Positions 6,485 to 22,461 are shown, counted from the stretch's first letter. The stretch: 64,000 nucleotides of DNA from Eubacteriales bacterium (GCA_021373115.1 JAJFTI010000036.1:12524-76523), one strand, 5' to 3'. Notes: generated by a model from the letters alone, not told the origin. Translations and numbers: made by a program.

Positions 6485-8224
6485 ATGTGGAAATACCTGT
6501 TAAAAAGTATCCGCGAATACAAAAAACCCTCGATCCTCGCCCCCGTCTATGTGACGATCGAGGTGATGATTGAATGCGCCATCCCGTTTATTACGGCGCT
6601 GCTGGTCAACCAGATCAAGGCCGGGTGCGGGCTTTCCGTCATAATAAAGTACGGCCTTGCGCTGCTCGTTCTGGCGGGCCTTTCGCTCAACTTCGGGCGG
6701 CTTTCCGGCACATCCGCGGCGCTGGCGGCAAGCGGCTTTTCGCGCAACCTGCGCAAGGATATGTTCTACGGCATTCAATCCTTTTCGTTTGAAAATATCG
6801 ACCGGTTTTCCAGCTCATCGCTCGTTACCCGGCTGACCACGGACGTAAGCAACGTTCAGATGGCGTATATGATGATCATCCGCGTTGCAATCCGCAGCCC
6901 GCTCATGCTCATTTTTGCGGTCATCATGTCGTTCATCATGGGCGGAAAGCTCGCGCTGGTCTTCGTCGTGGTGATTCCGATGCTGGGAATCGGGCTGTAC
7001 GTCGTGATTCGAAAGGCGTTTCCGATCTTCCGGCGCGTATTCCGGCAGTACGATGCGCTCAACCGCTCAATTCAGGAAAACGTTCAGGGTATCCGCGTGG
7101 TGAAGTCCTTCGTTCGCGAGGATTATGAGAAGCAGAAGTTTGGGTCCGCCGCGGAAAACCTGCGCGGGGAATTCACCAGGGCGGAAAAAATCCTCGCGTT
7201 CAATGGGCCCATGATGCAGTTTTGCCTGTACATCAACATGGTGTTCATCCTCACGTTTGGCGCGTATACCATCGCGACAACGCAGGGGCTCAACTTCAAC
7301 GTCGGTCAGCTCTCCTCGCTGATGGTCTACAGTTTCCAAACGCTCATGAGTCTGATGATGCTCTCCATGGTGTTTGTCATGATCACCATCGCGGAGGAAT
7401 CCGGGCGGCGCATCGTCGAGGTGCTCTCCGAATCCAGCACGCTGAAAAACCCCGACCATCCGGTTTACGAAGTGCAAAACGGCTCCATTGTGTTTGAAAA
7501 CGTACGGTTCCGTTACTCGGAAAAGGCCAGCCGGATGGCTCTGGAGCGCATCAATTTAATGATCCGTTCCGGCGAGACCATCGGTATCCTTGGCGGGACG
7601 GGTTCTTCCAAGACGTCGCTCGTGCAGCTGATCCCCCGCCTTTACGACGCGACGGAGGGCGTTGTCCGCGTCGGCGGGCTGGATGTGAAAGCATACGACA
7701 TTGAAGCCCTGCGCAACCAGGTATCCATGGTGCTGCAAAATAATCTGCTCTTTTCGGGCACCATTGCCGAAAACCTCCGCTGGGGAAATCCCGAAGCGAC
7801 GGACGAGGAGCTCCGCGCGGCCTGCCGCCTTGCGCAGGCGGACGACTTCGTATCCCAATTTCCCGAAGGGTACGCAACGCACATCGAACAGGGCGGAACG
7901 AACGTTTCCGGCGGGCAGAAGCAGCGTCTCTGTATTGCGCGCGCCTTGCTCAAACGTCCGAAAATCCTGATTCTCGACGATTCCACAAGCGCCGTGGACA
8001 CGCATACCGACGCGAAGATCCGCGCGGCGCTGCGCGAGTATCTTCCAGAAACCACGAAGATCATCATTGCGCAGCGCGTCGCCTCCGTTTTGGATGCAGA
8101 CCGTATCGTGCTGATGGATAAGGGTGAAATCGTCGCGATCGGCACGCATGCGGAGTTGCTCCAAACGAACGAAATCTACCGCGAGGTGTACGAATCCCAA
8201 AACAAGGCGGGTGAGACGAAATGA
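6485..8224 (+). CDS. ABC exporter, fused permease/ATPase half-transporter (subunit 1 of a heterodimer)
   Basis: Six N-terminal TM spans. Walker A GGTGSSKTS, signature VSGGQKQRLCIARA, Walker B ILILDDSTSAVD. Confidence 0.9.
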   Translation: MWKYLLKSIREYKKPSILAPVYVTIEVMIECAIPFITALLVNQIKAGCGLSVIIKYGLALLVLAGLSLNFGRLSGTSAALAASGFSRNLRKDMFYGIQSFSFENIDRFSSSSLVTRLTTDVSNVQMAYMMIIRVAIRSPLMLIFAVIMSFIMGGKLALVFVVVIPMLGIGLYVVIRKAFPIFRRVFRQYDALNRSIQENVQGIRVVKSFVREDYEKQKFGSAAENLRGEFTRAEKILAFNGPMMQFCLYINMVFILTFGAYTIATTQGLNFNVGQLSSLMVYSFQTLMSLMMLSMVFVMITIAEESGRRIVEVLSESSTLKNPDHPVYEVQNGSIVFENVRFRYSEKASRMALERINLMIRSGETIGILGGTGSSKTSLVQLIPRLYDATEGVVRVGGLDVKAYDIEALRNQVSMVLQNNLLFSGTIAENLRWGNPEATDEELRAACRLAQADDFVSQFPEGYATHIEQGGTNVSGGQKQRLCIARALLKRPKILILDDSTSAVDTHTDAKIRAALREYLPETTKIIIAQRVASVLDADRIVLMDKGEIVAIGTHAELLQTNEIYREVYESQNKAGETK

Positions 8225-10110
8225 AACCGAAACAGCTCTATCAAAAAGGCACGATGAAGCGGCTGCTGCGCATGCTGTTTTCGTTTTATCCGGTCGCCCT
8301 GCCGCTCGTTTTGCTCTGCGTCGTCTTTTCGGCGATGATTTCCTCTATTCCGTCTATTTTCATGCAGAACATCATTGCCGTGCTCGAGCAGAATCCGGGC
8401 GCGGGCTGGCCGGTCATCGGCCCGCAGGTGCTGCGCCTTACTTCGATCCTCGCCGGATTGTATGTTCTCGCGCTCGTATCCTCGTTTACCTACAACCGCG
8501 CGCTGGCGGTGATGACGCAGGGCGCCCTGAAAAAAATGCGCGAAACGCTCTTCCAACATATGGAAGATCTGCCGATTCCGTATTTCGACAAACACCCGCA
8601 CGGCGACATCATGAGCCACTATACGAACGATATCGATACCCTGCGCCAGCTTATTTCGCAAAGTCTGCCGCAGCTTCTTGTTTCGGGCGTTATCGTATTG
8701 ACCCTGTTTTCCATCATGCTCTACTTCAGCGTCTGGATGGCGCTTGTTGTGCTCGGCGGCGTTGCGTTTATGCTCTTTGTGGTCAAGCAGGTAGGCGGCA
8801 ATTCCGCGAAATTCTTCATCCGCCAGCAGCGCTCGCTCGGCAAGGCCGAGGGCTATGTGGAGGAAATGATGAGCGGGCAAAAGGTCGTCAAGGTGTTTTG
8901 CCACGAGAAGGAAGCCGGCGCGGCGTTCGACGCATTCAACGACGCGCTGTTTCACGACTCCAACCAGGCGAATAAGTTCGCCAATATACTGCCGCCGATC
9001 CTCATGAACATCGGCAATCTCATCTATGTGATGGTTGCGATGGCGGGCGGCATCTTCCTGCTGGCAAAGGCGCAGAATGTAAGCCTTTCGGGTCTGGCGT
9101 TCAGCATCAGCATCGTCGTTCCGTTCCTCAACATGACGCGGCAGTTCTCGGGCAACATCAATCAGGTGTCCCAGCAGCTCAACGCGGTGATCATGGGTCT
9201 CGCGGGAGCGGACCGCATCTTCCAGCTGCTGGACGAATCCGTCGAAGCGGATGCGGGATTCGTTTCCCTTGTTAACGCAACGCAGGAAAACGGCGAATTT
9301 GTCGAAAGTGAAACCCGCACGGGACTTTGGGCCTGGAAACAGCCGCAGCCCGACGGAACCGTGCGCTATACGCGTCTTACGGGCGATGTGCGCCTGCAAA
9401 ACGTGGATTTCAGCTACGAACCGGACAAACCGGTGCTAAGCGACATCTCACTCTTTGCCGAACCCGGCCAGAAGGTGGCGTTCGTCGGCGCAACCGGCGC
9501 GGGAAAAACCACGATAACAAACCTGCTGAACCGGTTTTACGACATTGCCGACGGAAAGATCCGCTACGACGGAATCAACATCAATAAAATCCAAAAATCC
9601 TCGCTCCGCCGCGCAATCGGCATGGTGCTGCAGGATACCAACCTGTTTACCGGAACGGTGCTCGAAAACATCCGCTACGGCCGTCTGGACGCAACGGACG
9701 CGGAATGTATGGAAGCGGCGCGGCTCGCTGGCGCGGACGACTTTATCGCGAGGCTGCCGGAAGGATACCAAACGATGCTTTCCAGCAACGGCGCGAATCT
9801 CTCGCAGGGGCAGCGCCAGCTCATCGCGATTGCGCGCGCGGCGGTTGCCGATCCGCCCGTGATGATTCTCGACGAGGCGACCTCCTCGATTGATACGCGA
9901 ACGGAGGCGATCGTGCAGCGCGGCATGGACGCGCTCATGAAAGGGCGCACGGTGTTCGTCATTGCACACCGTCTCTCTACGGTGCAGAATTCGGATGTAA
10001 TCATGGTGCTGGAGCATGGCCGAATCATTGAGCGCGGCAGTCATGCGCATTTGATCGAGCAAAAGGGCAAGTATTACCAGCTCTATACCGGCGCGTTCGA
10101 GCTGGAATAG
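8221..10110 (+). CDS. ABC exporter, fused permease/ATPase half-transporter (subunit 2)
   Basis: ATGA overlap with the previous gene. Walker A GATGAGKTT, signature LSQGQRQLIAIARA, Walker B VMILDEATSSID. Confidence 0.9.
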   Translation: MKPKQLYQKGTMKRLLRMLFSFYPVALPLVLLCVVFSAMISSIPSIFMQNIIAVLEQNPGAGWPVIGPQVLRLTSILAGLYVLALVSSFTYNRALAVMTQGALKKMRETLFQHMEDLPIPYFDKHPHGDIMSHYTNDIDTLRQLISQSLPQLLVSGVIVLTLFSIMLYFSVWMALVVLGGVAFMLFVVKQVGGNSAKFFIRQQRSLGKAEGYVEEMMSGQKVVKVFCHEKEAGAAFDAFNDALFHDSNQANKFANILPPILMNIGNLIYVMVAMAGGIFLLAKAQNVSLSGLAFSISIVVPFLNMTRQFSGNINQVSQQLNAVIMGLAGADRIFQLLDESVEADAGFVSLVNATQENGEFVESETRTGLWAWKQPQPDGTVRYTRLTGDVRLQNVDFSYEPDKPVLSDISLFAEPGQKVAFVGATGAGKTTITNLLNRFYDIADGKIRYDGININKIQKSSLRRAIGMVLQDTNLFTGTVLENIRYGRLDATDAECMEAARLAGADDFIARLPEGYQTMLSSNGANLSQGQRQLIAIARAAVADPPVMILDEATSSIDTRTEAIVQRGMDALMKGRTVFVIAHRLSTVQNSDVIMVLEHGRIIERGSHAHLIEQKGKYYQLYTGAFELE

Positions 10111-10203: not shown

Positions 10204-11172
10204 ATGAACGCTTATGATTTCGACGGATGCATTTACGAGGGGGACAGTACGCTGGACTTCTATTTCTTCTGCGTAAAACGGCAGCCAAAGCTGCTTCGGT
10301 TTCTCGGGCGGCAGATTGGAGGCTTTCTGCTGATTGCCTTCGGTTTCATGAATAAAACACAGTATAAACAACGTTTTTTCTCCTTTTTACAGGGTCTGGA
10401 CAACGTGGATGACACCGTGCGCGCCTTCTGGCAGACGCATATTCAAAAAATCAGCAAATGGTATCTTGCCCAGAAAAGCGAGCAGGATCTCGTTGTTTCC
10501 GCCTCACCGGAGTTCCTGCTGCGCCCCTGCTGCGATCAAATTGGCGTCCATCGTCTGGTCGCGTCCCGCGTCGATCCGGCGACCGGCCGGTTCACGGGCG
10601 AAAACTGCTATGGCGCGGAAAAACCCGCGCGCCTGAAGAGCCAGCTCGGCGTGGAGCAAGTTGGGGCGTTCTATTCCGATTCACTCTCCGACCTGCCGAT
10701 GGCGCAAATCGCCGGGCAGAGTTATCTTGTTCAAAATGGCCGAATTCTTCCCTGGACCGAATACCGCCCGAATGTATGGCAGAAGATCAAGCGGCATGCG
10801 TTTTCGTTTGAGTTTTTTCGTTTTCTGGTCGTCGGTTGCGTCAACACGCTCAACGGCGTTGTTTTTTCCTACTTGTTTTCGAAACTGCTGCCCGCGCAGG
10901 TTGCGTTCTGGTGCGGATACCTGGCCAGCCTGACGATTTCCTATCTGCTCAACAGCGTGTTTACGTTTCACGAGTCGATGAGCTTTCGTAAAATGCTGAA
11001 GTTCTTCGTTTCCTATATCCCGAATTTTCTGATTCAGAATATCGTTGTTTTCCTCGTCAACGGCGTATTCGGGCTGCCGGAGCTCTACGCCTATATCCTC
11101 GCCGCCGCAATCGGCATCCCCGTTACGTTTCTGTTGCTCAAGATATTTGCGTTTCGGAAAAAAATAAAATAG
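10204..11172 (+). CDS. Fusion protein: HAD-IB-type phosphatase domain (N) + GtrA-like 4-TM domain (C)
   Basis: HAD motif I YDFDGCIY, motif II VVSASP, motif IV YSDSLSDLPM. The C-terminal about 130 aa read FFRFLVVGCVNTLNGVVFSYLFSKLL..., with four hydrophobic spans typical of GtrA. Confidence 0.8.
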   Translation: MNAYDFDGCIYEGDSTLDFYFFCVKRQPKLLRFLGRQIGGFLLIAFGFMNKTQYKQRFFSFLQGLDNVDDTVRAFWQTHIQKISKWYLAQKSEQDLVVSASPEFLLRPCCDQIGVHRLVASRVDPATGRFTGENCYGAEKPARLKSQLGVEQVGAFYSDSLSDLPMAQIAGQSYLVQNGRILPWTEYRPNVWQKIKRHAFSFEFFRFLVVGCVNTLNGVVFSYLFSKLLPAQVAFWCGYLASLTISYLLNSVFTFHESMSFRKMLKFFVSYIPNFLIQNIVVFLVNGVFGLPELYAYILAAAIGIPVTFLLLKIFAFRKKIK

Positions 11173-11267
11173 AATAGTACCGCTTATATCGCTCGCACGG
11201 CGCGCGCCGCATACGCATCCGTGTACCGGGATATCGCTGATCCGACTATATTATCGGGAGGACTGAC

Positions 11268-13196
11268 ATGATCGCAATAATCCTGTTCTTTCTTATCCTT
11301 TGTTCGGGGAGTACGTTTGCGTGCTCATTCTCCACGGCGCGCTTTGAAAAGGTCGCGCCGCTCACCGTCTTTGCGATCATTGCCATCCTATACGTTTTCG
11401 GCCTGTTCAACCGTCTTGCCATGGGAGCGTGGGTGGTTTTACTGCTGGGCGCGGCGCTTTGGGTGTTCGCTGTTGTTCATGTTGCGGCAAAGCGCTCGTA
11501 TCTCGCTTTTGTAACACGATTCTTCACGCCCGCCTTTGCCTTTTTTATGCTCGCGTTCCTTTTTCTGCTCTATTCCAACTATGGTCGTCTGGTCTCCAAC
11601 CGCGACGATCTTGCGCACTGGGCCGACACGGTTAAAATACTGTTTTTCGCCGACCGGCTTGCAACGGCTCCATCCTTATTCGCGCAATACCAGAGTTATC
11701 CGCCTGCAATGTCGCTGCTGCAGTATCTGCCGCAGTTCATCGGCCGATTGTTCCGCGGCGGGTTCTCCGAGTGGCAGCTTTACGTCGCATTTGAAAGCGC
11801 GGTTCTTGTGCTGTTCGTTCCCGCTTTTTCCAGGCTGGAGTGGAACAAGTTGCACGCTCTTAGCATAGCCGCCATGTTCGTTTGTGCCTGCTGTGTGCCG
11901 GGAATACTGCACACGGATGTCTACCGGACGCTCATGATCGATCCTTACCTGGGACTCGTTGCAGGCTTCGGTTTCGCGACCCTCCTGCTCAACGAAAAGC
12001 GCGGCACGCTCGACACCGCCACACTTGCCCTTTGCTGTTTTGTTGTCACGCTTTCCAAACAAGCAGGCGCGGTACTCGCGATATTTCTTTGTGCCGCCGT
12101 GCTTCTCGATGCGCTGTGTACCCGTAAGCAAAGCGCGGAACCCGTTCGGCACAGCCGCCTGCGCGGCTCCGGTACCGCGGCGCTTTGCATCGCCGCAACC
12201 GCCGGTGCTTATGCTTCCTGGCAGTGGAAGCTCCGCCTGGACGGCTCTGTAAAGCTCTTTTCAAATCCGGTCGATCTATCCGTTTTCTGGAGAGCGGTCA
12301 CCGGAGAAGACGCCGGTTATCGAGGACAATCGCTGGAAGCATTCTTCCGCGCACTTTTCACCGGGCGGCAGGATATTGGAGTCGCGGGTTATGCCGGCAT
12401 TCCATTCAGCTTTGCGGCACTGTTTCTCGGTTTGCTCGTATTTGCCATTTTAATCGCACTGGCATATCGCGCGCGCGGCAAGGACATGCGCCGCTTCAAC
12501 GCGACGCTTGCCGTGCTTTTTGTCGGTTGTATTCTCTTTGTCATCGGCCTTGCCGTCAGTTATCTTTTCCAATTTTCGCAGGCAGAAGCGCTGAATCTGG
12601 CGTCGTTCGACCGGTATGTCAATATCCCGCTGGCAATGATTGTTCTTGTTTTGTTTTTACTGGCTGCGAATCTTATCTCGCAACCCGGCCGCGAAAGCCG
12701 GCGTATCACAATCGCGTTGCTTGCGATTGTGCTTTTGCTGTCTCCTCTGAAAGAACTCGGCAATTTTGCCCTGCGGCGGAACACCGCCTATTCAAAGAGC
12801 GTTCGCGCGCCGTATGAAGCTTCCGTCCGTCTTATACCTGAATTGATCGACAAGCAGGGCGCAAAAATCAGCGTCGTTTCCATCGGCTCACGTGATTTTG
12901 ATCTACAGATGCTCGCATTTTGCATGCGGCCGCTGCATGTTGCAGATTATGGGTCCAGTGCGCTTACATTGACGGAGGACGACATCTGCTCTGTTAACCT
13001 GAGTGCAAAAGACTGGATTGCACTATTAAATCGCGACGGGTTCGACTACGCCCTTCTCTATCGGCTGAATGATCGCTTTGCTTCCGTTTTTTCCGCCGCC
13101 TTTGCCGCGCCGGAAACGATAGCGCAGGGCGGGCTCTACCGGTTGAACAAGGATACGCAACTTCTGGAGTTCGTTGGCAGCGCGAACGAATCATAA
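11268..13196 (+). CDS. Large polytopic membrane protein, GT-C-like glycosyltransferase candidate (642 aa)
   Basis: More than 12 hydrophobic spans. An early loop has an acidic motif (SNRDDLAHWADT) and a YPPA motif (QSYPPAMSLLQY), reminiscent of the DxD/(K,H)PP loop motifs of GT-C enzymes. A soluble C-terminal domain of about 130 aa follows. Confidence 0.55.
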   Translation: MIAIILFFLILCSGSTFACSFSTARFEKVAPLTVFAIIAILYVFGLFNRLAMGAWVVLLLGAALWVFAVVHVAAKRSYLAFVTRFFTPAFAFFMLAFLFLLYSNYGRLVSNRDDLAHWADTVKILFFADRLATAPSLFAQYQSYPPAMSLLQYLPQFIGRLFRGGFSEWQLYVAFESAVLVLFVPAFSRLEWNKLHALSIAAMFVCACCVPGILHTDVYRTLMIDPYLGLVAGFGFATLLLNEKRGTLDTATLALCCFVVTLSKQAGAVLAIFLCAAVLLDALCTRKQSAEPVRHSRLRGSGTAALCIAATAGAYASWQWKLRLDGSVKLFSNPVDLSVFWRAVTGEDAGYRGQSLEAFFRALFTGRQDIGVAGYAGIPFSFAALFLGLLVFAILIALAYRARGKDMRRFNATLAVLFVGCILFVIGLAVSYLFQFSQAEALNLASFDRYVNIPLAMIVLVLFLLAANLISQPGRESRRITIALLAIVLLLSPLKELGNFALRRNTAYSKSVRAPYEASVRLIPELIDKQGAKISVVSIGSRDFDLQMLAFCMRPLHVADYGSSALTLTEDDICSVNLSAKDWIALLNRDGFDYALLYRLNDRFASVFSAAFAAPETIAQGGLYRLNKDTQLLEFVGSANES

Positions 13197-13336
13197 TCCG
13201 TTTCCGAAAATCGTTTCTTGCTTCCTATCCGGAAAAATCGGCTTATTCTCTATGCTTCGCTTTGTCTTTATATAACCTGCTGGTGATCCAACCCGCTGGG
13301 CAGGCCATAAACGCCCACGCGGCGCGCGCCGCTCGA

Positions 13337-13366
13337 TTGTCAGCATAAGCCGGAATATGCTATAAT
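13337..13366 (+). promoter_or_regulatory. Candidate internal promoter TTGTCA-18-(TGc)TATAAT
   Basis: Hand-read hexamers at 13337-13342 and 13361-13366, inside the 253-nt gap between the two membrane-protein genes. Confidence 0.45.
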
Positions 13367-13449
13367 GACCCAGTATTTCATTTGGCAAACGCGGAATTAT
13401 ATGTGCGGCGAATCGACTCTTCGGTTCCGCTTGCGCGCGAGGTGCGACG

Positions 13450-15111
13450 ATGAACAACTGGCTATTCGGGCGGGACGGCAAGCCGACCAGGGCTTTTCGC
13501 TGGCTGTTCCTGCTCTCGGCAACGGCGCTGGCGGGGCTTTTATCCGTGAAAGGCGACCTTATCTGGATTGCGTTCAGTATTCCGCTCGTTCTTGTCGCAC
13601 TCATATTTCTCGTGTTTCGTTTTCACTTCCTGGAAAAGACGTTCTCTTCCCTGCAAATCGGGCGCGCGGCGCTGAGCTATGTTCTCGCGGCGTATGCGGC
13701 GCAGTGCTATTCCGGCCTGTTTCTCGAACACCTGCGGAGTTTTGCCGCGGAAAACGCAAATCCTTTGTTTTCCGGCCTGATCGATCGGTTCGGCGCGGCC
13801 GGTTCCATCGTCGCCGGGCTGGTTTCCGTTCTGGCGCTGTTCGTCTATCTCTACTGGTTCATCGGCTGGTTTTCCGCGCAGATGCTTGACGTTTTCCGGC
13901 GGCTGGACGCCGTGGAGCGCTGGTACCTCGTTGTCGCGCTTACGGTTTCTGTCGTTTTACTCGTCGTTTTGTATCAACGAACAAGCGTTTTCTGCAATCC
14001 GAACGCATCCGCAGACAACGTTTGGAGCAAGGTGGACATTCTCTATTCCAGCGACACCTCTTCCCTGACGGAACAAAACGTATTCTACAATATTGCCGCA
14101 TCGGAGAACGATATCCGGCAGCCGCTCTTCGGCGCATTCGCCGCGCCTTTTGCGCTGAGCGCGTCGCTGATTACGCGCCTGCTGCTCCTGCCGGGCGCAT
14201 ATTACACGCTGCTGCAGATCGTTCAGGCGGCTCTGCTGTTCGTCAGCCTCGTGCTTGTTGCCCGAATGACCGGCGTATCCGGCGCGGAAAAGGCGCTCCT
14301 GCTGGCGTTGTTGACGCTGCTGTTTCCGACACTGCTGTTTTTGCTGAATATGGAGCAGTATATCTTCTCCGTGTTCTGGCTGGTTCTGCTCGTCTGGCTG
14401 TTTATGAGCCATGATGCGGCAGGGCGGGATGTCGCCTGGATTGCGGCCACCGGTTCCATCGCCACCAGCGGGCTGTTCCTCGTTCTTGTTCCGGGCAGCG
14501 GCTCGCTGCGCGAACGGTTCAAGCAAGCCGCGCTCGCCGTAGTCCGGTTCGGCGTAATCGCCCTCTTGCTCGGGCGCGCGGCCATGGCCATGACTTCCGT
14601 CGCGAACATCCGGTTCCTGCTTCAGTTCGCGGGCGAGAAACTGCCTTTTCTGGAGCGGCTGATGCAGTATGTCCGGTTTGCGGCTTCCTGTTTTGTCGCG
14701 CCTGCCGGCGAAGTGCTGCGCTATGAATCCGGTATGGCAGTCTATCACCAAGCCGCGGTAAGCGGCTGGAGCATTGGCGGCATCGTGTGCATCGTCTCTT
14801 CGATCGCCGGATTCCTGCTCAACCGGAAGAGCGCATATGCGCGCGTCTGCGCGTTTTGGGTCGCGTGTTCGTTCCTGCTGCTCTGCGTCGCAGGCTGGGG
14901 TACGTCGGAAAACGGGCTCGTTCTGTACACGCTATACTTCGCATGGGCGTTTGTTTCGCTGCTTGTTCTGCTTGTTACCAAGCTGTTCCAACGCGCGAAA
15001 GCGCTGCGTCTCGGCGCGTTTTCCGCCGGAATCATCGCCCTCGTCCTGTTGAATATGCGCGGAATTGCCGAGATCGTCCGCTTTGGCCTGCAATACTATC
15101 CCAAGCACTGA
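13450..15111 (+). CDS. Large polytopic membrane protein of unknown function (553 aa), possible GT-C-like or polymerase-like enzyme
   Basis: More than 12 hydrophobic spans. One polar loop reads DILYSSDTSSLTEQNVFYNIAASENDIRQPLFG. No soluble domain. Confidence 0.5.
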   Translation: MNNWLFGRDGKPTRAFRWLFLLSATALAGLLSVKGDLIWIAFSIPLVLVALIFLVFRFHFLEKTFSSLQIGRAALSYVLAAYAAQCYSGLFLEHLRSFAAENANPLFSGLIDRFGAAGSIVAGLVSVLALFVYLYWFIGWFSAQMLDVFRRLDAVERWYLVVALTVSVVLLVVLYQRTSVFCNPNASADNVWSKVDILYSSDTSSLTEQNVFYNIAASENDIRQPLFGAFAAPFALSASLITRLLLLPGAYYTLLQIVQAALLFVSLVLVARMTGVSGAEKALLLALLTLLFPTLLFLLNMEQYIFSVFWLVLLVWLFMSHDAAGRDVAWIAATGSIATSGLFLVLVPGSGSLRERFKQAALAVVRFGVIALLLGRAAMAMTSVANIRFLLQFAGEKLPFLERLMQYVRFAASCFVAPAGEVLRYESGMAVYHQAAVSGWSIGGIVCIVSSIAGFLLNRKSAYARVCAFWVACSFLLLCVAGWGTSENGLVLYTLYFAWAFVSLLVLLVTKLFQRAKALRLGAFSAGIIALVLLNMRGIAEIVRFGLQYYPKH

Positions 15112-15153
15112 ACCCGGTTCCCTCCCTCCCGAAATCGTCCTGTGGGGTAACGT

Positions 15154-16032
15154 ATGAAGCCGTATATCAAACTAATGCGCGTAAAGCATTACAGCAAGAA
15201 CATCCTGCTCTTCCTTCCGCTCGTCTTCGGACGGAAACTGATCGACGCGACGCTGCTGCTGCACGTTCTGCTCGGTTTTGTCGCGTTTTCGCTGCTCTCG
15301 TCCGTCGTCTATATCGTAAACGACATTCGGGATATAGAGAAAGACCGGCTCCACCCAACCAAGAAAAATCGGCCCATCGCAAGCGGAGTGGTTCCTGTTT
15401 CCGGCGCGCGCGTGATGGCGGGCGTCCTTTTCGCACTCGCGCTTGCAATCAACGCGCTGGCCTGCGGCGGGGCCGTCCTGCCGTGGGCGCTCATGGGCGC
15501 ATACCTGCTCTGCAACATAGGTTACAGTATGGGGCTGAAAAACATCGCGATTCTGGATATTACGATCCTGATGCTTGGATTCCTGCTGCGGCTGCTGTAT
15601 GGTTCCGCTCTGGTTCAAATTGAAATTTCACAGTGGCTGTATCTAACCGTTGTTGCGTTTTCATTCTTTATGGTGCTCGGCAAGCGCAGGAACGAATTAC
15701 TTGCGCAGCAGTCCGGCGAAATGCGGGGCGAAACCCGCGCGGTGCTGAACCGGTATTCCTATTCCTTCCTCGATAAGGGCATGTATATGTGTCTGACGCT
15801 CGGCATTCTGTTCTATTCGCTCTGGTGCGTCGATGTTTCGTCCGCCGGGCAGATTCCCGGTAAATACCTGTTATGGACGGTTCCGTTGGTGATTCTGATC
15901 TGTTTGAAATACAGCCTGACCGCCGAAGGAAAATCGGACGGCGATCCCGTTGAAGTGCTCTTTGGCGACCGCTGGCTGCTGGGTATGGTCGGCTTGCTGG
16001 TCTGCGCCATGCTGGCGATCCTTTATCTGTAG
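15154..16032 (+). CDS. UbiA-family polyprenyl-phosphate phosphoribosyltransferase (decaprenyl-phosphate PRTase-like)
   Basis: N-terminus MKPYIKLMRVKHYSKNILLFLPLVFG and first Asp-rich motif NDIRDIEKDRLHPTKKNRPIASG are the pattern seen in Rv3806c-type enzymes. About 8 TM spans. Confidence 0.75.
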   Translation: MKPYIKLMRVKHYSKNILLFLPLVFGRKLIDATLLLHVLLGFVAFSLLSSVVYIVNDIRDIEKDRLHPTKKNRPIASGVVPVSGARVMAGVLFALALAINALACGGAVLPWALMGAYLLCNIGYSMGLKNIAILDITILMLGFLLRLLYGSALVQIEISQWLYLTVVAFSFFMVLGKRRNELLAQQSGEMRGETRAVLNRYSYSFLDKGMYMCLTLGILFYSLWCVDVSSAGQIPGKYLLWTVPLVILICLKYSLTAEGKSDGDPVEVLFGDRWLLGMVGLLVCAMLAILYL

Positions 16033-16108
16033 GGCAAATCCTCGGTGCAGGGTCTTCCGCGCAGATCCGCGCCAACCAGTCTCTTCCTGGAAAAAGGTGA
16101 AAAAACCC

Positions 16109-17812
16109 GTGAAATACTCCGGTAATTCGAAGAACATACAAACAACGTCCCGTCCCGGGCGTACCCTGCTGGCCGTCTTCGTTAGCGCGATCGGCCTGGT
16201 TTTTCTGCTGTCCGCCGGCTGCGCGGCGCAAGCGCTGGATCGCACCGCGGACACCATTGTGATCACCAGCCTGAATCAGGCTGAGTCGGAAACATTTGAA
16301 GGATTCGATTCGCTGAAAACGCTGGATTTGCGATCTGTGGAAGCGGACGCCGCGCTGGTGGATCGTCTGAGCACCGCGCTGCCCGGCTGCACAATTCTCT
16401 GGAACGTACCGCTCTGCAACGAGCATTATCCCAGCGAAGCAACCGAACTGACGCTGCCAACGGGCTGTACGGCGGGCGATTTATCCATGCTGCGGTTTTT
16501 CCCCGCGCTGACGCGTGTGGACGCGACGCAGTGCAGCGTGAACGAAACGTTTGCCAAAGCGGCGGCGGCGTTTCCCGGCGTCGCTTTCGTGTGGAATGTG
16601 TCTCTCGGCGGCGTAACGGTGCAGAGCAGCGATACGTCGCTTAAACTCACAAACAATTACGCACTCACGCCGGAGCAGCTCGGCATGTTCCTGTTCGGGC
16701 TGCCCGCGCTAAAGCAGATCGACCTGAACGATACGGGCTGGACGGCGGAACAGATTGCTTCGCTCCAGAGCGCATATCCGGAAAAAACGTTTCTTTCCAG
16801 CGTAACCGTTTTTGGCGAGTCCTTCCCGTCATCGGTGGAATCGCTCGACCTTTCCGCGACGCAGGACGTTGATATAAACGCTCTGACGGAGCTTCTCCCA
16901 TCCTTTCCCGCGCTGAAGCAGGTGAACCTTCTGGGGCATGCCGTTACGTTCGAACAGATGGACGCGCTGCGGGCGGCGTTTCCGGATATCGCGTTCTCCT
17001 TCTCCTTCGAGCTCTTCGGCCAGCAGGTCACAACGGATACGACGCTGCTTGCGCTGAACGGGTATCCGCTGGCCTCGCCGGAGGAAGTAATCGAGCAGCT
17101 GAACTACCTGCCGAAACTTACCGAAGCGCATTTCTTTGACTGCGGGCTGACAAACGAACAGATGGAGCAGCTTGTGGCGGCGGTTCCATCCGTAAAATTC
17201 GTCTGGATGATTCAGGTTGGCGCATGGGAAATGCGAACCGATATTACGGCGTTTTCCAAAGGGAACCGGAAGATATTTCCAAACAACATGGGCCGGTTTG
17301 TGGATGAAGCAGAAGCGAACCTGCACAACGAGGATATCGAACCGCTGAAATATTGCACCGATCTTGTTTACCTTGATCTTGGACACGGCAATCGAATCTC
17401 CGATCTATCCGTGCTGACGGGGCTGAAAAATCTTCGGGTGCTCATCGTATCCATGAATAAAATCGAGGATATTTCCCCGCTGGCGGAGCTGAAGAATCTG
17501 GAATGCCTTGAGATTTACCAAAACCCCATTACGGATATCTCCCCCGTCGCTTCGCTGCCCAAGCTGCGGTTTCTCAATTGCAGCGCAACGCTGTTTACGG
17601 ATATCACGCCGCTTTTGGGCATGACGAATCTGAAAATGCTGTGGTTTGTGAGCGTAAAGAATGTCAGCAAGGAACAGCGCGCGCAGCTGGTGGAAGCGCT
17701 GCCGGACTGTAGCATCTGCTTCAAGGCGAGCAGTTCCGGGGAAGGCGGCTGGACGGGGAACGATCTGTATATCGAGTACCAAACCGCTTTCGGCCTGCCC
17801 TATAATCAATAG
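16109..17812 (+). CDS. Secreted or lipid-anchored leucine-rich-repeat (internalin-like) protein
   Basis: ORF 15950..17812 overlaps the UbiA gene, so the start was re-picked at in-frame GTG 16109 (AAGGTGA 8 nt upstream; GTG 16097 is an alternative). Signal sequence LLAVFVSAIGLVFLLSAGC. C-terminal 22-residue LRRs read LKNLRVLIVSMNKIEDISPLAELKNLECLEIYQNPITDISPVASLPKLRFL. Confidence 0.7.
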   Translation: MKYSGNSKNIQTTSRPGRTLLAVFVSAIGLVFLLSAGCAAQALDRTADTIVITSLNQAESETFEGFDSLKTLDLRSVEADAALVDRLSTALPGCTILWNVPLCNEHYPSEATELTLPTGCTAGDLSMLRFFPALTRVDATQCSVNETFAKAAAAFPGVAFVWNVSLGGVTVQSSDTSLKLTNNYALTPEQLGMFLFGLPALKQIDLNDTGWTAEQIASLQSAYPEKTFLSSVTVFGESFPSSVESLDLSATQDVDINALTELLPSFPALKQVNLLGHAVTFEQMDALRAAFPDIAFSFSFELFGQQVTTDTTLLALNGYPLASPEEVIEQLNYLPKLTEAHFFDCGLTNEQMEQLVAAVPSVKFVWMIQVGAWEMRTDITAFSKGNRKIFPNNMGRFVDEAEANLHNEDIEPLKYCTDLVYLDLGHGNRISDLSVLTGLKNLRVLIVSMNKIEDISPLAELKNLECLEIYQNPITDISPVASLPKLRFLNCSATLFTDITPLLGMTNLKMLWFVSVKNVSKEQRAQLVEALPDCSICFKASSSGEGGWTGNDLYIEYQTAFGLPYNQ

Positions 17813-17827
17813 AAAACCAAATCTTCC

Positions 17828-17875
17828 AAAAACAACACTGCGCATCTCCAAAGCCGAGATGCGCAGTTGTTTTTT
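17828..17875. terminator. Bidirectional intrinsic terminator between the LRR gene (+) and aor (-)
   Basis: A-run, stem aacaacactgcgcatctc / gagatgcgcagttgtt (one bulge), then T-run. Confidence 0.6.
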
Positions 17876-19676
17876 ACGATGCAGGCTCTTCCGCCGAATC
17901 TTTTTTCGATCCCGAATCCTCCGGGCCGTCATACTTTTTCATCAGCGCGTTGGTCATCGCATTGAACTTTCGCTGCGCCTCGTAAGCGGTTGTTTCGTCC
18001 AGAAGTCCGTGCAGACTGGGCGTTTCGAAAAAGCGTTTCGGAAACTCCACCTTCTCCTGCTCAAATCCCATTGCCCGCTTGACGCGGATCTTCGTAGCGT
18101 AGATCTTTTCTGCCACGCGCGTGAGATCGTCGCTGGAGAACGTGTATCCAACGGAGTTCAGCGCCATTAGAATCGTCTCTCGGTCGTAGACCTTTCTGGC
18201 AAACAGGCACATCACAAGCGAATTCAGCATGCAGCGGTCGATCTCTTCCTGAAACAGCTTGCCGACCAGCAGATCGATATCCAGCGTCTTCATTCCTTGA
18301 TCAATCGAGTATCCGCCGTTGCAAAGGTGCGAATGTCTCGCCCCGCAGGACATGCCAATCAACGCGCCATAACCCGTATGATATCCCGCCATTTCATTGC
18401 CGGCAATCTGCATCGCAAAGTCCTTGCCGCCGTATATACTCGCGGCATGGGCGGCGCCCTTTCCCAGGGCGATGTAAAAATCGTTCTCCTGGTATGCGAT
18501 ATAGCGCAAAGCCTTAATGTAGTTTTCCTTATCGCCGAATTTTAGCGGAATGACCGTTTCCTTTTCGCTGATCAGCCCTTTTTGCAGCGCTTCCGTCGCC
18601 CAGCCGAGCACAACTCCGGCGGACATCGCGTCCATGCCGAGCTCCTCGACCTCGTCGATCAGTTCCAGAATCTCGTCGGTCGTCTTAATGCCAAGATAAC
18701 TGCCGAGCGCGAAGATCAGTTCATAATCGTAGCTCACGCTGATCGACTCATACTCGTGCCCAGCCTTGTCGAACTCACGGCGAAACTGGCCGATATGGAT
18801 GCAACCGACCGGGCAGCCAACGCAAGCCATCTTGCGGACTAAATTGCACTCCGCAAACTGTTCGCCGCTGATCTTGTCGCCATGTTCGAATACGGCCTGT
18901 TTGAGGTTCTTCGTCGGCAGAACGCCGAGCGCGTTCAGCGGTTCAATATTGATGGAAGTGCCGAGGTCGTGATACTTCTGCATCAGCTCGGTGTCCGTAC
19001 ACTTTTTATAGATTTCACGGTATGCTTTCCAGTAGGACGGAAAATCCTTGATCGGAATCGACGTCGTGCCATAAACCTGCATCGCCTTGATGTTTTTCGA
19101 CCCCAGCACCGCGCCAAGCCCGAGTCGGCCGAAATGACGATAGGTGTCCACGCAAACGCTCGAGTAGGAAACGCCGTTCTCGCCCGCCGGACCGATGCGG
19201 ATGATGCTCCGTTTGCCGGGCCCCGGCTCCCGCTCGCGGATAATGCGTCCGATCACCGTGCTGGGCAGCCCCCAAAGGGCGCGCGCATCCCGAAACGACA
19301 CGTTGTCCGAACGGACCGAAATATAGGTCGGCTTCTTCGATTTGCCGGTCAGTACGATCGCGTCGTATCCGGCGTCCATCATGGCGAAAGCGAGCCTGCC
19401 TCCGGCGTAGCTTTCTCCCAGCTCGCCCGTATGCGGCGAACGGAACACAGCGACGGTTTTCGTCATAACCGGGAAAATCGAAGTAATCGCGCCAACCGCG
19501 AAGACCACAGGCTGACTTTCATGCAACGGTGGAAGCTGCGGATGAACGTTTTCCTCGAACAGCTTGATCGCGATTCCGATTCCGCCGAGATACTCGTTGA
19601 GATCCGGCCTCTTTTCAATTCGAAGTTTTTCGGTATTTAAATCGATAAACAAAACGCGTTTGTCTTCATGAAACAT
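17874..19676 (-). CDS. aor: Aldehyde:ferredoxin oxidoreductase family (tungsto/molybdopterin) enzyme
   Basis: 600 aa. The N-terminal AOR_N pattern is MFHEDKRVLFIDLNTEKLRIEKRPDLNEYLGGIGIAIKLF. A Cys-containing 4Fe-4S segment reads KMACVGCPVGCIH. Confidence 0.9.
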   Translation of the reverse strand: MFHEDKRVLFIDLNTEKLRIEKRPDLNEYLGGIGIAIKLFEENVHPQLPPLHESQPVVFAVGAITSIFPVMTKTVAVFRSPHTGELGESYAGGRLAFAMMDAGYDAIVLTGKSKKPTYISVRSDNVSFRDARALWGLPSTVIGRIIREREPGPGKRSIIRIGPAGENGVSYSSVCVDTYRHFGRLGLGAVLGSKNIKAMQVYGTTSIPIKDFPSYWKAYREIYKKCTDTELMQKYHDLGTSINIEPLNALGVLPTKNLKQAVFEHGDKISGEQFAECNLVRKMACVGCPVGCIHIGQFRREFDKAGHEYESISVSYDYELIFALGSYLGIKTTDEILELIDEVEELGMDAMSAGVVLGWATEALQKGLISEKETVIPLKFGDKENYIKALRYIAYQENDFYIALGKGAAHAASIYGGKDFAMQIAGNEMAGYHTGYGALIGMSCGARHSHLCNGGYSIDQGMKTLDIDLLVGKLFQEEIDRCMLNSLVMCLFARKVYDRETILMALNSVGYTFSSDDLTRVAEKIYATKIRVKRAMGFEQEKVEFPKRFFETPSLHGLLDETTAYEAQRKFNAMTNALMKKYDGPEDSGSKKDSAEEPAS

Positions 19677-19679
19677 GGC

Positions 19680-20087
19680 TCAGACCTCCTCCATTGTCAA
19701 GCACTCGTGCGGGCAGAACTGGGCACAGATTCCGCAATGTTTGCAGACAATCGGCACCTTCAAATCCTCGTCGAAGTTTACGGCTCCAACGATGCAAGCG
19801 TCGATGCACTTGCGGCAGCCGATGCACTTCTCCTGCTCCAGAATCACGCCGCCGCCTTTACGAGGTTTTAAAGCGCCTGTCGGACAGGCTTCCGCACAGG
19901 CGCGCTCGTCCGTGCAGCCAAGGCAGACAATTCCTACGAAACTGCTCGTCAGTCCGCCGGTGGTGCGAACGCGAATCGCACTCTTAAATGTCGTATGTTC
20001 CTTTTTATTGACCGCGGCGCATGAAAGCATGCAGGTAAAACAACCGATGCATTTGTTCATGCCGTTTGCTCGCAATATCTTTGCCAT
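19680..20087 (-). CDS. 4Fe-4S dicluster electron-transfer protein (AOR partner)
   Basis: Multiple CxxCxxCxxxC motifs (CIGCFTCMLSC, CLGCTDERACAEAC, CIGCRKCIDAC, CKHCGICAQFC). Its stop lies 3 nt before the aor ATG. Confidence 0.85.
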   Translation of the reverse strand: MAKILRANGMNKCIGCFTCMLSCAAVNKKEHTTFKSAIRVRTTGGLTSSFVGIVCLGCTDERACAEACPTGALKPRKGGGVILEQEKCIGCRKCIDACIVGAVNFDEDLKVPIVCKHCGICAQFCPHECLTMEEV

Positions 20088-20135
20088 ATATCCTCCTCGC
20101 CTGAATGCCGTTTAATCAATTACCAATTATCGATT

Positions 20136-20163
20136 AGTATACACGTAGATCTTCCTTTGTCAA
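20136..20163 (-). promoter_or_regulatory. Candidate promoter TTGACA-16-TATACT for the FeS-aor pair
   Basis: Hand-read on the minus strand in the 145-nt gap upstream of the FeS gene. Confidence 0.4.
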
Positions 20164-20232
20164 CCGTTCGCCTTCGCCGTCTCATGAACCTCTATGCCTG
20201 TTTCACACGTCCAATCTGTATTCGCCTGCTCC

Positions 20233-20499
20233 TCAGCCGCCGAGTATCGGACCAATCACGCTGATCTGCTGCCCTTCCGTAAGCGGTTCGTCCGGAAGCA
20301 GCATTCTTCCGTTTGACGCGAAAATTGTTTGATCCCGCAGGCTGTTTTGCTCGTCCTCCGTGCCGGTCCCCGTTTCCTTCCAGTTCTCTTGGATCGCATT
20401 CAGCAGCCCTTCCATGGTGGAGCGGTCCGGCAGGGAAAACGGAGTAATCCGATTTGATTTCTGGCTGGAAAACGCCACAAACCGTAAGAATACAATCAT
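20233..20499 (-). CDS. MoaD/ThiS-family ubiquitin-like sulfur-carrier protein (88 aa)
   Basis: ORF 20233..20766 trimmed to MIVFLRF (ATG 20499, GAGGCGGGAA upstream). C-terminus ...GQQISVIGPILGG ends in the diagnostic Gly-Gly. Confidence 0.6.
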   Translation of the reverse strand: MIVFLRFVAFSSQKSNRITPFSLPDRSTMEGLLNAIQENWKETGTGTEDEQNSLRDQTIFASNGRMLLPDEPLTEGQQISVIGPILGG

Positions 20500-20666
20500 G
20501 TCTGTTCCCGCCTCGTCAATGAAATAGAAATCTCGCAGCCTTAATAAAACTGCACGGTTCATACAATTCATTCTACCATATCCGCCGCGGCGATTCCATC
20601 CGTCGCGCTCATGTTCCACCAGCCGCACGCCCATCCGGAATCGCCTATACGCCGGAGAACTCTGCC

Positions 20667-20706
20667 ATATAAAGACAAACGGAACCACCTGTTTGCGGTT
20701 CCGTTT
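20667..20706 (-). terminator. Intrinsic terminator after the CoADR-rhodanese gene
   Basis: Minus strand reads AAACGGAACC-gcaaacag-GGTTCCGTTT, followed by GTCTTTAT. Confidence 0.5.
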
Positions 20707-20817
20707 GAGGATTTCGCCGGCTCGGCAGCGGCGGATGTTCGATTCTTTCGTTTTTCTCTTTTCCAAACAGAAATGGTTCTTTCAAACCCGTTGGAATGGA
20801 TTACCCAATTCGGTTTT

Positions 20818-22461
20818 TCAATGTTTTTTTCGCACCGCGGAATACTGCTTCATTCCGCCGGAAAGATTATAAACGCGCTTGAACCCATTGTTGATCAGAA
20901 TATTCTGCGCGGCGTTTCCGGTCGTGCCTTTATTGCAATAGGTCACGACGATCGCATCCTTATTCAGCGAGGCCACGGAACCACGCAGATCCGAATGGGG
21001 AATGTTCCGCGCGCCTTCCACGTGCGACTGTTCAAATTGCGCCACGGTACGCGCGTCGATTACCGTAACCGGTTCGCCTGCTCTCTGCAGCGCAATCAGC
21101 TCATCCGCCGCCATCAGCGGCCGGCCGCCGTGAAGCGCATTTTCGAGGATCATCCCCGTATAGATCACGGGGTCCTTCGTCGTGGAAAACGGCGGCGCGT
21201 ACGCAAGATCCAGGTAAAACAAATCCTCCGCCTTTGCGCCGTAGGTAATCGCGGTGGCAAACACGTCGATGCGCTTATCCACGCCTTCATGCCCAACGAT
21301 TTGTGCGCCGAGCACACGCCCGTTAGCACGATCCGCAATCGCCTTTATCGTCATTTCCCGGCCGCCGAAATATTCCGGCTTATCAGGTTTTGTGTTATGA
21401 CAAACGACAACATCGTACCCCGCTTCGCGCGCTTCCCGCTCGGAAAGGCCCGTCTGCGCGACGCTAAGACCCAGTACGCGAAAAATGCCCGTGCCGAGCG
21501 TCCCGCGATAGCGCAGCGCCCCGCCTGTGGCGCAGTCCCCCGCGATGCGTCCCGTTTTATTCGCCGTGGAACCCAGCGGACGGTAAACCTGCTTTCCAGT
21601 TACCACATGGAACTGCTCTATACAGTCCCCGCAGGCGGAGATATCGGGCAGGTTGGTCTCCATCCGGTCGTTGACCAGGATTGCGCCGGACGCGCCAAGC
21701 TGAACCCCGGCCTCTGCGGCGAGTTCGGCATTCGGGCGTACGCCGGTGGAAAGCAGCACCAGCTCCGCTGAAATGCTTGTTCCATCCGCAAGCAAAACCT
21801 CATGCCCGGCAATTCGGTCAATTGAAACGCCGGTGAGCACCGTGATTCCGCTCTTTTTCAAATGATCCTCTACCAGAACCGCCATGTCCGGGTCCAGCCC
21901 CGGCGTGACCTGCGGCAGTTTTTCGAGCAGCGTCACCGTTACGCCGAGACGGCTCAGGCTCTCGCACATCTCCAGCCCGATGAACCCCGTACCAATAATA
22001 ACCGCCGATTTCGGCTTGCTCTCATCGAGAAACGACCGGATGCGAAGCATGTCGTTGATGTTCCGCAGGGTAAATACATGCTCGAGTTCCCGCCCGGGAA
22101 TCGGCGGCGTTACCGCGCGCGCTCCCGTAGCAAAGATGAGCTTGTCATACACATCCGTAAAAAATTCTCCCGTGCGCAGATTTTTCACCGAAAGACTCTT
22201 CGTTCCCGGCGAAACGGCAAGCACCTCGTGCTCCGTTTTGATCTCGACGTTATACTTGCTGCGGAAGAATTCGGGGTCGCGCGGGGTCAGTTCCTCGGCA
22301 TGTTCCACTTCGCCGCCGAGGAAGTACGGCATGCCGCAGCCGGAGTAGGAGATAAAACGATCCTGCTCATAGACCGTGATCTGTGCGTCCTCACTGTTTC
22401 GCCGCGCTTTTGCCGCGGCGGAAGTGCCCGCCGCAACCGCGCCGATGATGACAATTTTCAT
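20818..22461 (-). CDS. CoA-disulfide/persulfide reductase-type FAD oxidoreductase with a C-terminal rhodanese domain (CoADR-RHD)
   Basis: GxGxxG segment MKIVIIGAVAAGTSAAAK. Redox Cys in SYSGCGMPYF. C-terminal rhodanese segment VTVIDARTVAQFEQSHVEGARNIP...VVTYCNKGTTGNAAQ. Confidence 0.85.
   Translation of the reverse strand: MKIVIIGAVAAGTSAAAKARRNSEDAQITVYEQDRFISYSGCGMPYFLGGEVEHAEELTPRDPEFFRSKYNVEIKTEHEVLAVSPGTKSLSVKNLRTGEFFTDVYDKLIFATGARAVTPPIPGRELEHVFTLRNINDMLRIRSFLDESKPKSAVIIGTGFIGLEMCESLSRLGVTVTLLEKLPQVTPGLDPDMAVLVEDHLKKSGITVLTGVSIDRIAGHEVLLADGTSISAELVLLSTGVRPNAELAAEAGVQLGASGAILVNDRMETNLPDISACGDCIEQFHVVTGKQVYRPLGSTANKTGRIAGDCATGGALRYRGTLGTGIFRVLGLSVAQTGLSEREAREAGYDVVVCHNTKPDKPEYFGGREMTIKAIADRANGRVLGAQIVGHEGVDKRIDVFATAITYGAKAEDLFYLDLAYAPPFSTTKDPVIYTGMILENALHGGRPLMAADELIALQRAGEPVTVIDARTVAQFEQSHVEGARNIPHSDLRGSVASLNKDAIVVTYCNKGTTGNAAQNILINNGFKRVYNLSGGMKQYSAVRKKH

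Follow-up and report, generated by a model that had tools for sequence, protein, structure and literature searches.

The five-gene cluster at positions 10204-17812 of a 64,000-nucleotide (nt) stretch from Eubacteriales bacterium (GCA_021373115.1, JAJFTI010000036.1:12524-76523; the whole stretch is referred to here as the window) probably encodes a glycosylation system based on a polyprenyl-phosphate-linked pentofuranose derived from phosphoribosyl pyrophosphate (PRPP), with a polytopic membrane protein of 553 amino acids (aa) as the transferase. The host is a gut Christensenella (class Clostridia). The five open reading frames (ORFs) lie on the + strand and are separated by short gaps, except for 253 nt before the 553-aa gene; five same-strand genes with this domain content had been proposed from the sequence alone, and the ORFs as well as scans against Pfam and NCBIfam agree with that proposal. 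The features of the cluster are as follows.

10204-11172, + strand: HAD-IB phosphatase-GtrA fusion, 322 aa (PF12710, PF04138)
11268-13196, + strand: predicted glycosyltransferase of the GT-C fold, 642 aa (model fold; no Pfam or NCBIfam match)
13337-13366, + strand: promoter-like site, TTGTCA-18-TATAAT, 11 of 12 consensus positions, extended TG
13450-15111, + strand: polytopic membrane protein, 553 aa, putative divergent branch of DUF6080 (model fold, gene context)
15154-16032, + strand: predicted UbiA-family enzyme of the polyprenyl-phosphate/decaprenyl-phosphate phosphoribosyltransferase (PPPRS/DPPRS) type, 292 aa (NF008978, PDB match, motifs)
16109-17812, + strand: predicted leucine-rich repeat (LRR) lipoprotein, 567 aa (LRR_4, 5.9e-27; lipobox)
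17837-17867, no single strand: bidirectional intrinsic terminator, 12-bp stem with 7 GC pairs, T-runs on both strands

In the pathway that we propose, the UbiA-family enzyme would make polyprenyl-P-5-phosphoribose from PRPP, the HAD-IB domain of the fusion protein (10204-11172) would strip the 5-phosphate to yield polyprenyl-P-ribofuranose, and the fused GtrA domain would move or hand the sugar on its lipid carrier to the outer side of the membrane, where the 553-aa, DUF6080-like GT-C-type protein would transfer the pentofuranose to an acceptor. The co-transcribed LRR lipoprotein on the outer face would serve as an acceptor-recruiting subunit or would be the acceptor itself; as a recruiting subunit, it would replace the carbohydrate-binding domains that other GT-Cs carry in cis. 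The 642-aa GT-C would have been recruited in this lineage as an additional transferase, and its donor might be the lipid-linked pentofuranose of the cluster or a polyprenyl-P-hexose synthesised elsewhere.

The protein encoded at 15154-16032, which matches PF01040 and has approx. nine predicted transmembrane segments, is assigned by its sequence to the polyprenyl-phosphate 5-phosphoribosyltransferases, i.e., to the PPPRS/DPPRS clade and not to MenA, CyoE or UbiA proper. Among the models compared, the one for decaprenyl-phosphate phosphoribosyltransferase (NF008978) matched best (213.1 bits against a curated cut-off of 207 bits; E = 4.8e-63), while those for MenA, UbiA, CyoE, ChlG and EboC gave E-values of at least 2e-6. 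A sequence search of the PDB matched only the DPPRS entries from Mycobacterium tuberculosis and M. smegmatis (8j8j, 4e-35, and 8j8k). Residues N56, D57, D60 and D64 (NDxxDxxxD, loop II) and residues K177, R178, R179 and E181 (KRRxE, loop IV) are kept in at least 95% of 47 homologues; the residues equivalent to NDxxDxxxD and R..E are required in both Citrobacter youngae ORF15 and M. tuberculosis DPPRS (PMC11127046). Both the motif NDIRDIEKD...KNRPIASG and the resemblance to decaprenyl-phosphate phosphoribosyltransferase, as put forward in the sequence-only reading, were borne out.

The fusion protein consists of a cytoplasmic HAD domain (residues 1 to approx. 190; PF12710, 1.7e-19; TIGR01488, HAD-IB, above its cut-off) and a full-length GtrA-type membrane domain (residues approx. 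206-317; PF04138, GtrA_DPMS_TM, 3.8e-15). All four HAD catalytic motifs are intact (D5xD7, S99, K140 and D159xxxD163) and are kept in 27 to 29 of 29 homologues, and both domains are present in each of the top 120 homologues of the fusion. The HAD-GtrA gene directly adjoins the UbiA gene in ten loci (L026, L028, L029, L031, L033-L035, L045, L048 and L066). When homologues of the fusion were sampled irrespective of the presence of a GT-C, a UbiA gene in the same orientation was found nearby in 3/3 cases, i.e., directly upstream in L089 and L090 and at a distance of 2.6 kb upstream in L087, where an IS66 insertion separates the two genes. The same HAD subfamily occurs as a stand-alone protein beside UbiA (L027, L037, L041, L053, L057, L060, L070, L075 and L086) and also as an N-terminal fusion partner of the 553-aa family (L082, 9026-11236; P0261; P0270), with P0261 at 43% identity (1e-53). 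A HAD-family domain fused to the PPPRS of Citrobacter has been shown to be a phosphoribose 5-phosphatase (PMC11127046); the HAD of the window did not match the model for HAD-UbiA fusions (NF006088) at E <= 0.1, so that it may not share a subfamily with the Citrobacter HAD. We propose, from domain content and motifs, that the fusion joins a polyprenyl-P-5-phosphoribose 5-phosphatase to a flippase or handler of the lipid-linked sugar. In Paenibacillus, HAD-GtrA is replaced by a divergent PAP2 phosphatase (DUF212, 8e-32), which parallels the PAP2-type Rv3807c of mycobacteria, together with a small EamA/SMR-like protein; judged by sequence, this swap appears to be a non-orthologous displacement that keeps the predicted chemistry.

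The 553-aa protein itself matched no Pfam or NCBIfam model, including DUF6080 (PF19558; no match at E <= 0.1), while 11 of 31 clear homologues match DUF6080 (best 1.3e-10), as does a Paenibacillus paralogue (2.1e-5). These matches place it as a putative divergent sister branch of DUF6080, and the family comprises 922 representative clusters. Many members of the 553 family are longer (approx. 650-710 aa), with an N-terminal extension of approx. 150 aa that has no Pfam match. The AlphaFold2 model of the 553-aa protein (pLDDT 91.2; pTM 0.92) lacks a soluble extracytoplasmic domain, and its best Foldseek matches in the PDB were ALG12, PIG-U, ALG9, Pmt4 and PimE (probability 0.77-1.00; TM-scores 0.29-0.47), with ALG12 at probability 1.00 and TM-scores of 0.41/0.46. 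Invariant residues in the family are D202, N220, D221, R223, Q224, P225 and E487.

The genomic context of this family was assessed in 52 loci with at least 3 kb of flanking sequence on both sides, using a neighbor distance of up to 4 kb. A UbiA (PPPRS) homologue was found near the 553-family gene in 32 of these loci, and UbiA or HAD in 37, among taxa that included Christensenellaceae, Oscillospiraceae, Paenibacillus, Acetanaerobacterium, Treponema, Planctomycetaceae and metagenome-assembled genomes of Bacilli. Assuming that each genome carries one UbiA-family gene or a few of them, we estimate that chance adjacency of a 553-family gene and UbiA would be well under 1% per locus. As the observed adjacency is far above chance, the 553-aa family was taken as the dedicated transferase of the module; from the modelled fold and this linkage we infer that the 553-aa protein is a GT-C-type pentofuranosyltransferase, which is the weakest link of the argument.

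The 642-aa protein, on the other hand, has a clearer fold and is not co-conserved with the pathway. No Pfam or NCBIfam model matched it, and no Pfam family was found in any of 21 members of its family, which is rare (24 homologue clusters among 5.8 billion proteins). Its AlphaFold2 model (pLDDT 89.7; pTM 0.91) had ten best Foldseek matches in the PDB that were all GT-Cs, including STT3 (E = 2.3e-4), AftA, ArnT, Pmt4, DPY19 and EmbC (probability 0.97-1.00); the best TM-score was obtained with AftA (8if8_C; 0.45/0.48, E = 9.6e-4). The invariant residues of the family are D113, H117, W118, Y144 and P146, which lie in a loop (104-169) that a crude positive-inside count places on the extracytoplasmic side, and the C-terminus forms an alpha/beta domain (approx. 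530-642). The model thus clearly predicts a GT-C glycosyltransferase of an unclassified family. Sequence searches of the PDB with the 642-aa and 553-aa families gave nothing useful, and profile-profile comparisons found no relation between these two families, between either of them and a 551-aa protein from Clostridium beijerinckii (see below), or between the 553-aa family and DUF6044; the GT-C candidates are tied together by fold and context only. A 570-aa neighbor in Paenibacillus was considered as an orthologue of the 642-aa protein and rejected, as it is a second 553-family paralogue.

Several observations weigh against the system as proposed here. The GT-C fold that the sequence-only reading expected of both large membrane proteins is clear for the 642-aa protein but only moderate for the 553-aa protein, for which the Foldseek E-values are weak (0.15-0.8). 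Moreover, crude hydropathy did not settle whether the loop with the invariant residues D202, N220 and D221 faces outwards, and sequence-profile comparisons did not tie the 553-aa family to any known glycosyltransferase family. In 11 of the 52 loci no UbiA, HAD or LRR gene was found near the 553-family gene; the family may not be restricted to a PRPP-derived donor, or these genomes may encode the donor enzymes at another place. Whether GtrA proteins act as flippases at all is disputed and yet to be proven (PMC7389260). The 642-aa family was found in 0 of 78 related loci, a 74%-identical orthologue (L083) has no UbiA, HAD or 553-aa gene nearby, and distant relatives adjoin GT2-GtrA fusions, i.e., hexose-type lipid-sugar synthases (L084, 10001-14803; L085, 8963-11893); the 642-aa GT-C is regarded as a lineage-specific addition with an uncertain donor. 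Finally, the search for epimerases covered 64 kb rather than the whole genome, so that arabinofuranose or xylofuranose is possible as the sugar. Overall, the mechanism outlined in the sequence-only reading, with counterparts for each step except the epimerase, is supported by motifs, folds and linkage at every step that can be tested in silico: the UbiA protein did not fall into another clade, both large membrane proteins resemble GT-Cs in their modelled fold and the core genes are co-conserved (UbiA in 32/52 loci). The five genes do not form one uniform unit, however, given the absence of the 642-aa gene elsewhere, and the description of the system as new did not hold either (see below).

As for the sugar that is transferred, nearly all long ORFs of the 64-kb window were scanned against Pfam, and no DprE1/DprE2, FAD_binding_4/ALO-type oxidase or sugar epimerase was found, as had been claimed for DprE1/DprE2; the only short-chain dehydrogenase/reductase (28830-29564) is FabG and belongs to a fatty-acid synthesis operon. 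Given that the cluster has no linked epimerase, the sugar is most likely ribofuranose. Alternatively, the same pathway could deliver a different sugar if polyprenyl-P-ribose were epimerised to arabinofuranose (Araf) or xylofuranose (Xylf) by an unlinked enzyme, i.e., one resembling DprE1/DprE2 or the ORF13-like, nicotinamide adenine dinucleotide (NAD)-dependent epimerase. Apart from the limited part of the genome inspected, this idea draws on genomes that split the core genes over two distant loci (L010/L069, L013/L052 and L008/L056) and on the existence of variants with an epimerase, i.e., L086 and systems described by Kelly et al., in which in-cluster epimerases, when present, convert the donor to Xylf or Araf (PMC11127046). 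In every documented Araf or Xylf system, as well as in L086, the epimerase is, however, located in the cluster (PMC11127046), and no DprE- or ORF13-type epimerase or flavin adenine dinucleotide-dependent oxidase was among the recurrent neighbors of the module in the 78 related loci. An unlinked epimerase thus appears unlikely.

We also considered that the 553-aa protein might serve to transport, flip or scaffold the lipid-linked sugar, with the 642-aa GT-C acting as transferase here and other GT-Cs acting elsewhere. The non-significant Foldseek E-values of the 553-aa model, the presence among its top matches of PIG-U (a non-catalytic GT-C-like subunit) and the clearer GT-C signature of the 642-aa protein would all be consistent with such a role, as would the loci with a stand-alone HAD and no GtrA, where another protein must flip the sugar. 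Conversely, most UbiA-bearing 553-family loci have no other recognisable large GT-C and, as the 642-aa family is missing from all 78 loci, would be left without a transferase; the invariant acidic and polar loop residues of the 553 family are typical of GT-C catalytic loops, and its five highest-probability structure matches all belong to the GT-C fold class. A non-catalytic role of the 553-aa protein therefore seems rather improbable. The notion of a functionally unrelated group of genes, with the UbiA enzyme as an ordinary prenyltransferase of the aromatic or heme type, is effectively refuted: the UbiA superfamily is hard to assign from sequence alone and two further DPPRS models scored under their own cut-offs (NF008977, 197.6 vs. 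234; NF008976, 164 vs. 474), but NF008978 was passed with the other clade models far behind, the PDB search returned DPPRS only, the association with HAD, GtrA and the 553-aa family extends across phyla, and a quinone prenyltransferase is unlikely because genes for quinone biosynthesis are reportedly absent from Christensenella genomes (PMC7937921).

The remaining conserved partner of the 553-aa glycosyltransferase candidate is the LRR protein. Its gene most likely starts at GTG 16109, which is preceded by the Shine-Dalgarno-like sequence AAGGTGA, and not at 15950; the annotation of the source assembly also gives a length of 567 aa, consistent with this start. As a consequence of the start at 16109, the LRR gene does not overlap the UbiA gene. 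The protein carries a signal peptide and a lipobox (...LVFLLSAGC; PROSITE-type pattern), and the lipobox cysteine is kept in 22 of 26 LRR homologues under a strict pattern. By this pattern it is a predicted lipoprotein, so that its earlier description as a secreted LRR protein holds with regard to the repeats and to export and requires correction with regard to the anchoring and the start codon.

In 19 of the 52 loci, all of the Christensenellales type, an LRR homologue is immediately adjacent and co-directional to the 553-family gene or to the UbiA gene downstream of it. The partner may lie upstream or downstream of the 553-family gene or UbiA, and gaps or overlaps often amount to a few bases. 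Moreover, several complete genomes carry two separate 553-LRR pairs, with the donor genes split between the pairs or present at one only; examples are L010 (HAD-GtrA, 553 and LRR) with L069 (LRR, 553 and UbiA), L013 with L052, L008 with L056, and L012 with L048. As the 553-aa model lacks a soluble extracytoplasmic domain, the LRR protein may supply acceptor recognition in trans; it may be a surface-anchored partner of the 553-aa GT-C that either binds the acceptor or is itself the acceptor. That the two form a dedicated enzyme-substrate or enzyme-adaptor pair is put forward as a tentative possibility. If the LRR protein were the substrate, it would be ribofuranosylated, and gut Clostridia would possess a form of protein glycosylation, by a pentofuranose derived from PRPP, that was not known before. 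If it were an adaptor, it would represent a trans-acting acceptor-recognition subunit, which to our knowledge has not been described for any GT-C. In either case, genomes with two 553-LRR pairs and one donor module (L010/L069 and L012/L048) would contain two target-specific units that draw on one donor pool.

The layout of the cluster is consistent with two transcription units. The 253-nt gap at 13197-13449 is unusually long for the cluster and holds the near-consensus sigma-70-type site at 13337-13366, a consensus match only, as the total number of such sites in the region equals the expectation from shuffled sequence. Judged by its sequence, this site may be an internal promoter for a conserved sub-operon of the 553-aa, UbiA and LRR genes. 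Comparison with L005, L018 and L019 suggests that these three genes are the ancestral unit and that HAD-GtrA and the 642-aa gene form an upstream unit that is transcribed separately. The strong terminator at 17837-17867 ends the cluster and is shared with the convergent gene for an aldehyde:ferredoxin oxidoreductase.

Lipid-linked ribofuranose pathways are not new as such. In C. youngae, ORF15, a HAD-PPPRS fusion, was shown biochemically to make polyprenyl-P-ribofuranose (undecaprenyl-P-ribofuranose) from PRPP, and a MATE protein and a GT-C, the founding member of GT136, complete a three-component system for periplasmic side-chain glycosylation (Kelly et al., PNAS 2024; PMC11127046). Such systems are widespread, with one Gram-positive candidate named (Bacillus sp. 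NP157; PMC11127046). The sequence-only reading had put forward the cluster as an undescribed system, which this 2024 publication on Citrobacter contradicts (PMC11127046); its narrower statement that no such pathway is characterised in Clostridia stands, as no Clostridia example was found in Kelly et al. or in the other literature searched. The searched literature also contained no HAD-GtrA architecture, DUF6080-like or orphan GT-C family, or LRR pairing in such a pathway, and literature on DUF6080, Christensenella wall sugars and Firmicutes PPPRS yielded nothing specific. The locus is most likely a Firmicutes-type version of three-component extracytoplasmic pentofuranose glycosylation, built from different and largely uncharacterised parts.

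Compared to ORF15-ORF14-ORF12 of C. youngae O1/O2, the cluster shares a predicted PRPP-dependent UbiA-family PPPRS with the same catalytic motifs, a predicted HAD-family phosphatase, a putative dedicated membrane protein for movement of the sugar, a candidate external transferase of the GT-C fold and the lack of an epimerase, which implies ribofuranose. It differs in that its PPPRS is a stand-alone protein of 292 aa and the HAD domain is fused to GtrA instead of PPPRS; the putative flippase is of the GtrA type rather than a MATE protein (the scanned ORFs, in the cluster and in the rest of the window, gave no match to MatE). The transferase candidates of the window, a DUF6080-like protein and an orphan GT-C, can be set beside GT136 by fold class only. 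An LRR lipoprotein is present as an additional conserved partner, and the host is a Christensenella. In Citrobacter, the acceptor is the O antigen.

The mycobacterial decaprenyl-phosphoarabinose pathway has in common with the cluster the UbiA enzyme (a homologue of Rv3806c; 4e-35 to 8j8j), a GtrA-family protein (cf. Rv3789) and GT-Cs, with AftA giving the best TM-score for the 642-aa model. Unlike that pathway, the window lacks DprE1/DprE2, its phosphatase is of the HAD type rather than the PAP2 type, its GT-Cs are not members of Emb/Aft by sequence and its carrier lipid is probably C55. The GtrA/GtcA-CsbB-YfhO systems for lipoteichoic and wall teichoic acids, as well as GtrABC of Shigella and Salmonella, also make a polyprenyl-monophosphate sugar inside the cell, handle it by GtrA and use a GT-C outside (PMC8035078, PMC7389260). 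Their donor synthase, however, is a GT2 enzyme (GtrB/CsbB) that uses a nucleotide sugar, as opposed to a PRPP-using UbiA enzyme plus a phosphatase, and the Pfam/NCBIfam scan found no Glycos_transf_2 (GT2) domain in the cluster. Pilin D-arabinofuranosylation in Pseudomonas aeruginosa, in which a GT-C (TfpW) transfers a PPPRS-derived lipid-linked pentofuranose to a surface protein, provides a precedent for the LRR lipoprotein as acceptor; in contrast to the cluster, it needs epimerases (DprE1/E2 homologues), targets pilin and has neither an LRR partner nor a HAD-GtrA fusion.

UbiA and HAD-GtrA also behave as a portable pair, whose neighbors include other GT-C candidates as well as LtaS, TagF-like or polysaccharide genes. 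In L089 the donor module adjoins LtaS and a PMT_2 GT-C, and in L090 it lies inside a GT4/Bac_transf polysaccharide cluster. In L087 (C. beijerinckii CP029329.1, 602655-623620), the gene order is TagGH-like ABC transporter, GT2, GT2 plus TagF-like, the 551-aa protein (weak PMT_2 match), UbiA, IS66, HAD-GtrA and IS66; the module may stand at the end of a teichoic-acid-type cluster and be disrupted by insertion sequences. By analogy, these contexts suggest that wall polymers may be common acceptors of the donor module elsewhere. The families that recurred near the module in the 78 loci comprised an enoate-reductase-like flavoprotein, an AraC response regulator, FGGY kinase, BirA, LCP, DUF6020 and GT2. 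A different arrangement was observed in a Paenibacillus sp. JDR-2-like locus (L003, 6556-11632) and also in L020, L021 and L025, with an ABC exporter, UbiA, an EamA/SMR-like protein, a divergent PAP2 (DUF212) and two tandem 553-family paralogues. In L083 (8277-19554; 3.58-Mb relative), the genes around the 642-aa orthologue encode a 556-aa protein that lacks annotation, an 818-aa PIG-L/NAGPA protein, a paralogue of the LRR lipoprotein and a CotH/LTD protein, and this locus is a different envelope-modification neighborhood without donor genes. L084 also encodes a DUF6020 membrane protein, and DUF6020 recurs near some 553-family loci without UbiA (L039).

A further variant of the module was found at 1228-5749 of L086 (MT837543.1, a human faecal scaffold labelled 'UNVERIFIED bacteriophage'), with the following genes on one strand.

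1228-2925: DUF6044 membrane protein, 565 aa
2936-3901: NAD-dependent epimerase
4259-4858: stand-alone HAD
4868-5749: PPPRS

This arrangement suggests that DUF6044 is another family of pentofuranosyl GT-Cs and that the variant uses an epimerised sugar; the phage origin of the scaffold is taken only from its label. A search of phage collections for GT136/ORF15 returned MT837543 alone, i.e., this different variant.

Directly upstream of the cluster, on the + strand, 5949-10110 encodes a MarR regulator followed by two genes for a heterodimer-type ABC exporter (6485-10110). A similar exporter precedes UbiA in Paenibacillus, and the exporter pair was considered as a member of the cluster; it was rejected, as the pair is preceded by its own MarR regulator and as only weak, opposite-strand ABC matches were found elsewhere, and it is probably an independent efflux unit. 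Convergent with the cluster, 17874-22461 (- strand) encodes the aldehyde:ferredoxin oxidoreductase, a 4Fe-4S ferredoxin and a protein that resembles CoA-disulfide reductase and carries a rhodanese domain. At 50451-56660 (- strand), an ORF of 2069 aa with Listeria-Bacteroides repeats (Flg_new, 4.9e-49) encodes a giant surface protein, which is a conceivable glycosylation target. The remainder of the window is occupied by housekeeping genes, i.e., a fab/acc operon (27.5-36 kb), pyrimidine biosynthesis (43-48 kb), enolase and leu/ilv (57-64 kb), and scanning the window for Rfam families and tRNAs gave no match.

Christensenella is a heritable genus associated with health, and very little is known of its surface chemistry. 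The proposed system would carry the lipid-linked ribofuranose glycosylation described in 2024 beyond the O antigens of Gram-negative bacteria to Firmicutes that are abundant in the gut, Christensenella among them, and would provide the first functional hypothesis for Pfam DUF6080 (with its approx. 900 representative clusters) as well as for an orphan GT-C family. The fusions of HAD to GtrA, to the synthase and to the transferase would constitute "Rosetta-stone" evidence that GtrA proteins act directly on a PRPP-derived lipid-linked sugar, which bears on the continuing dispute over the role of mycobacterial Rv3789, either as a flippase or as an anchor protein. As the same donor module is located beside teichoic-acid genes in the genetically tractable C. 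beijerinckii, this organism would offer a practical experimental entry to the system.

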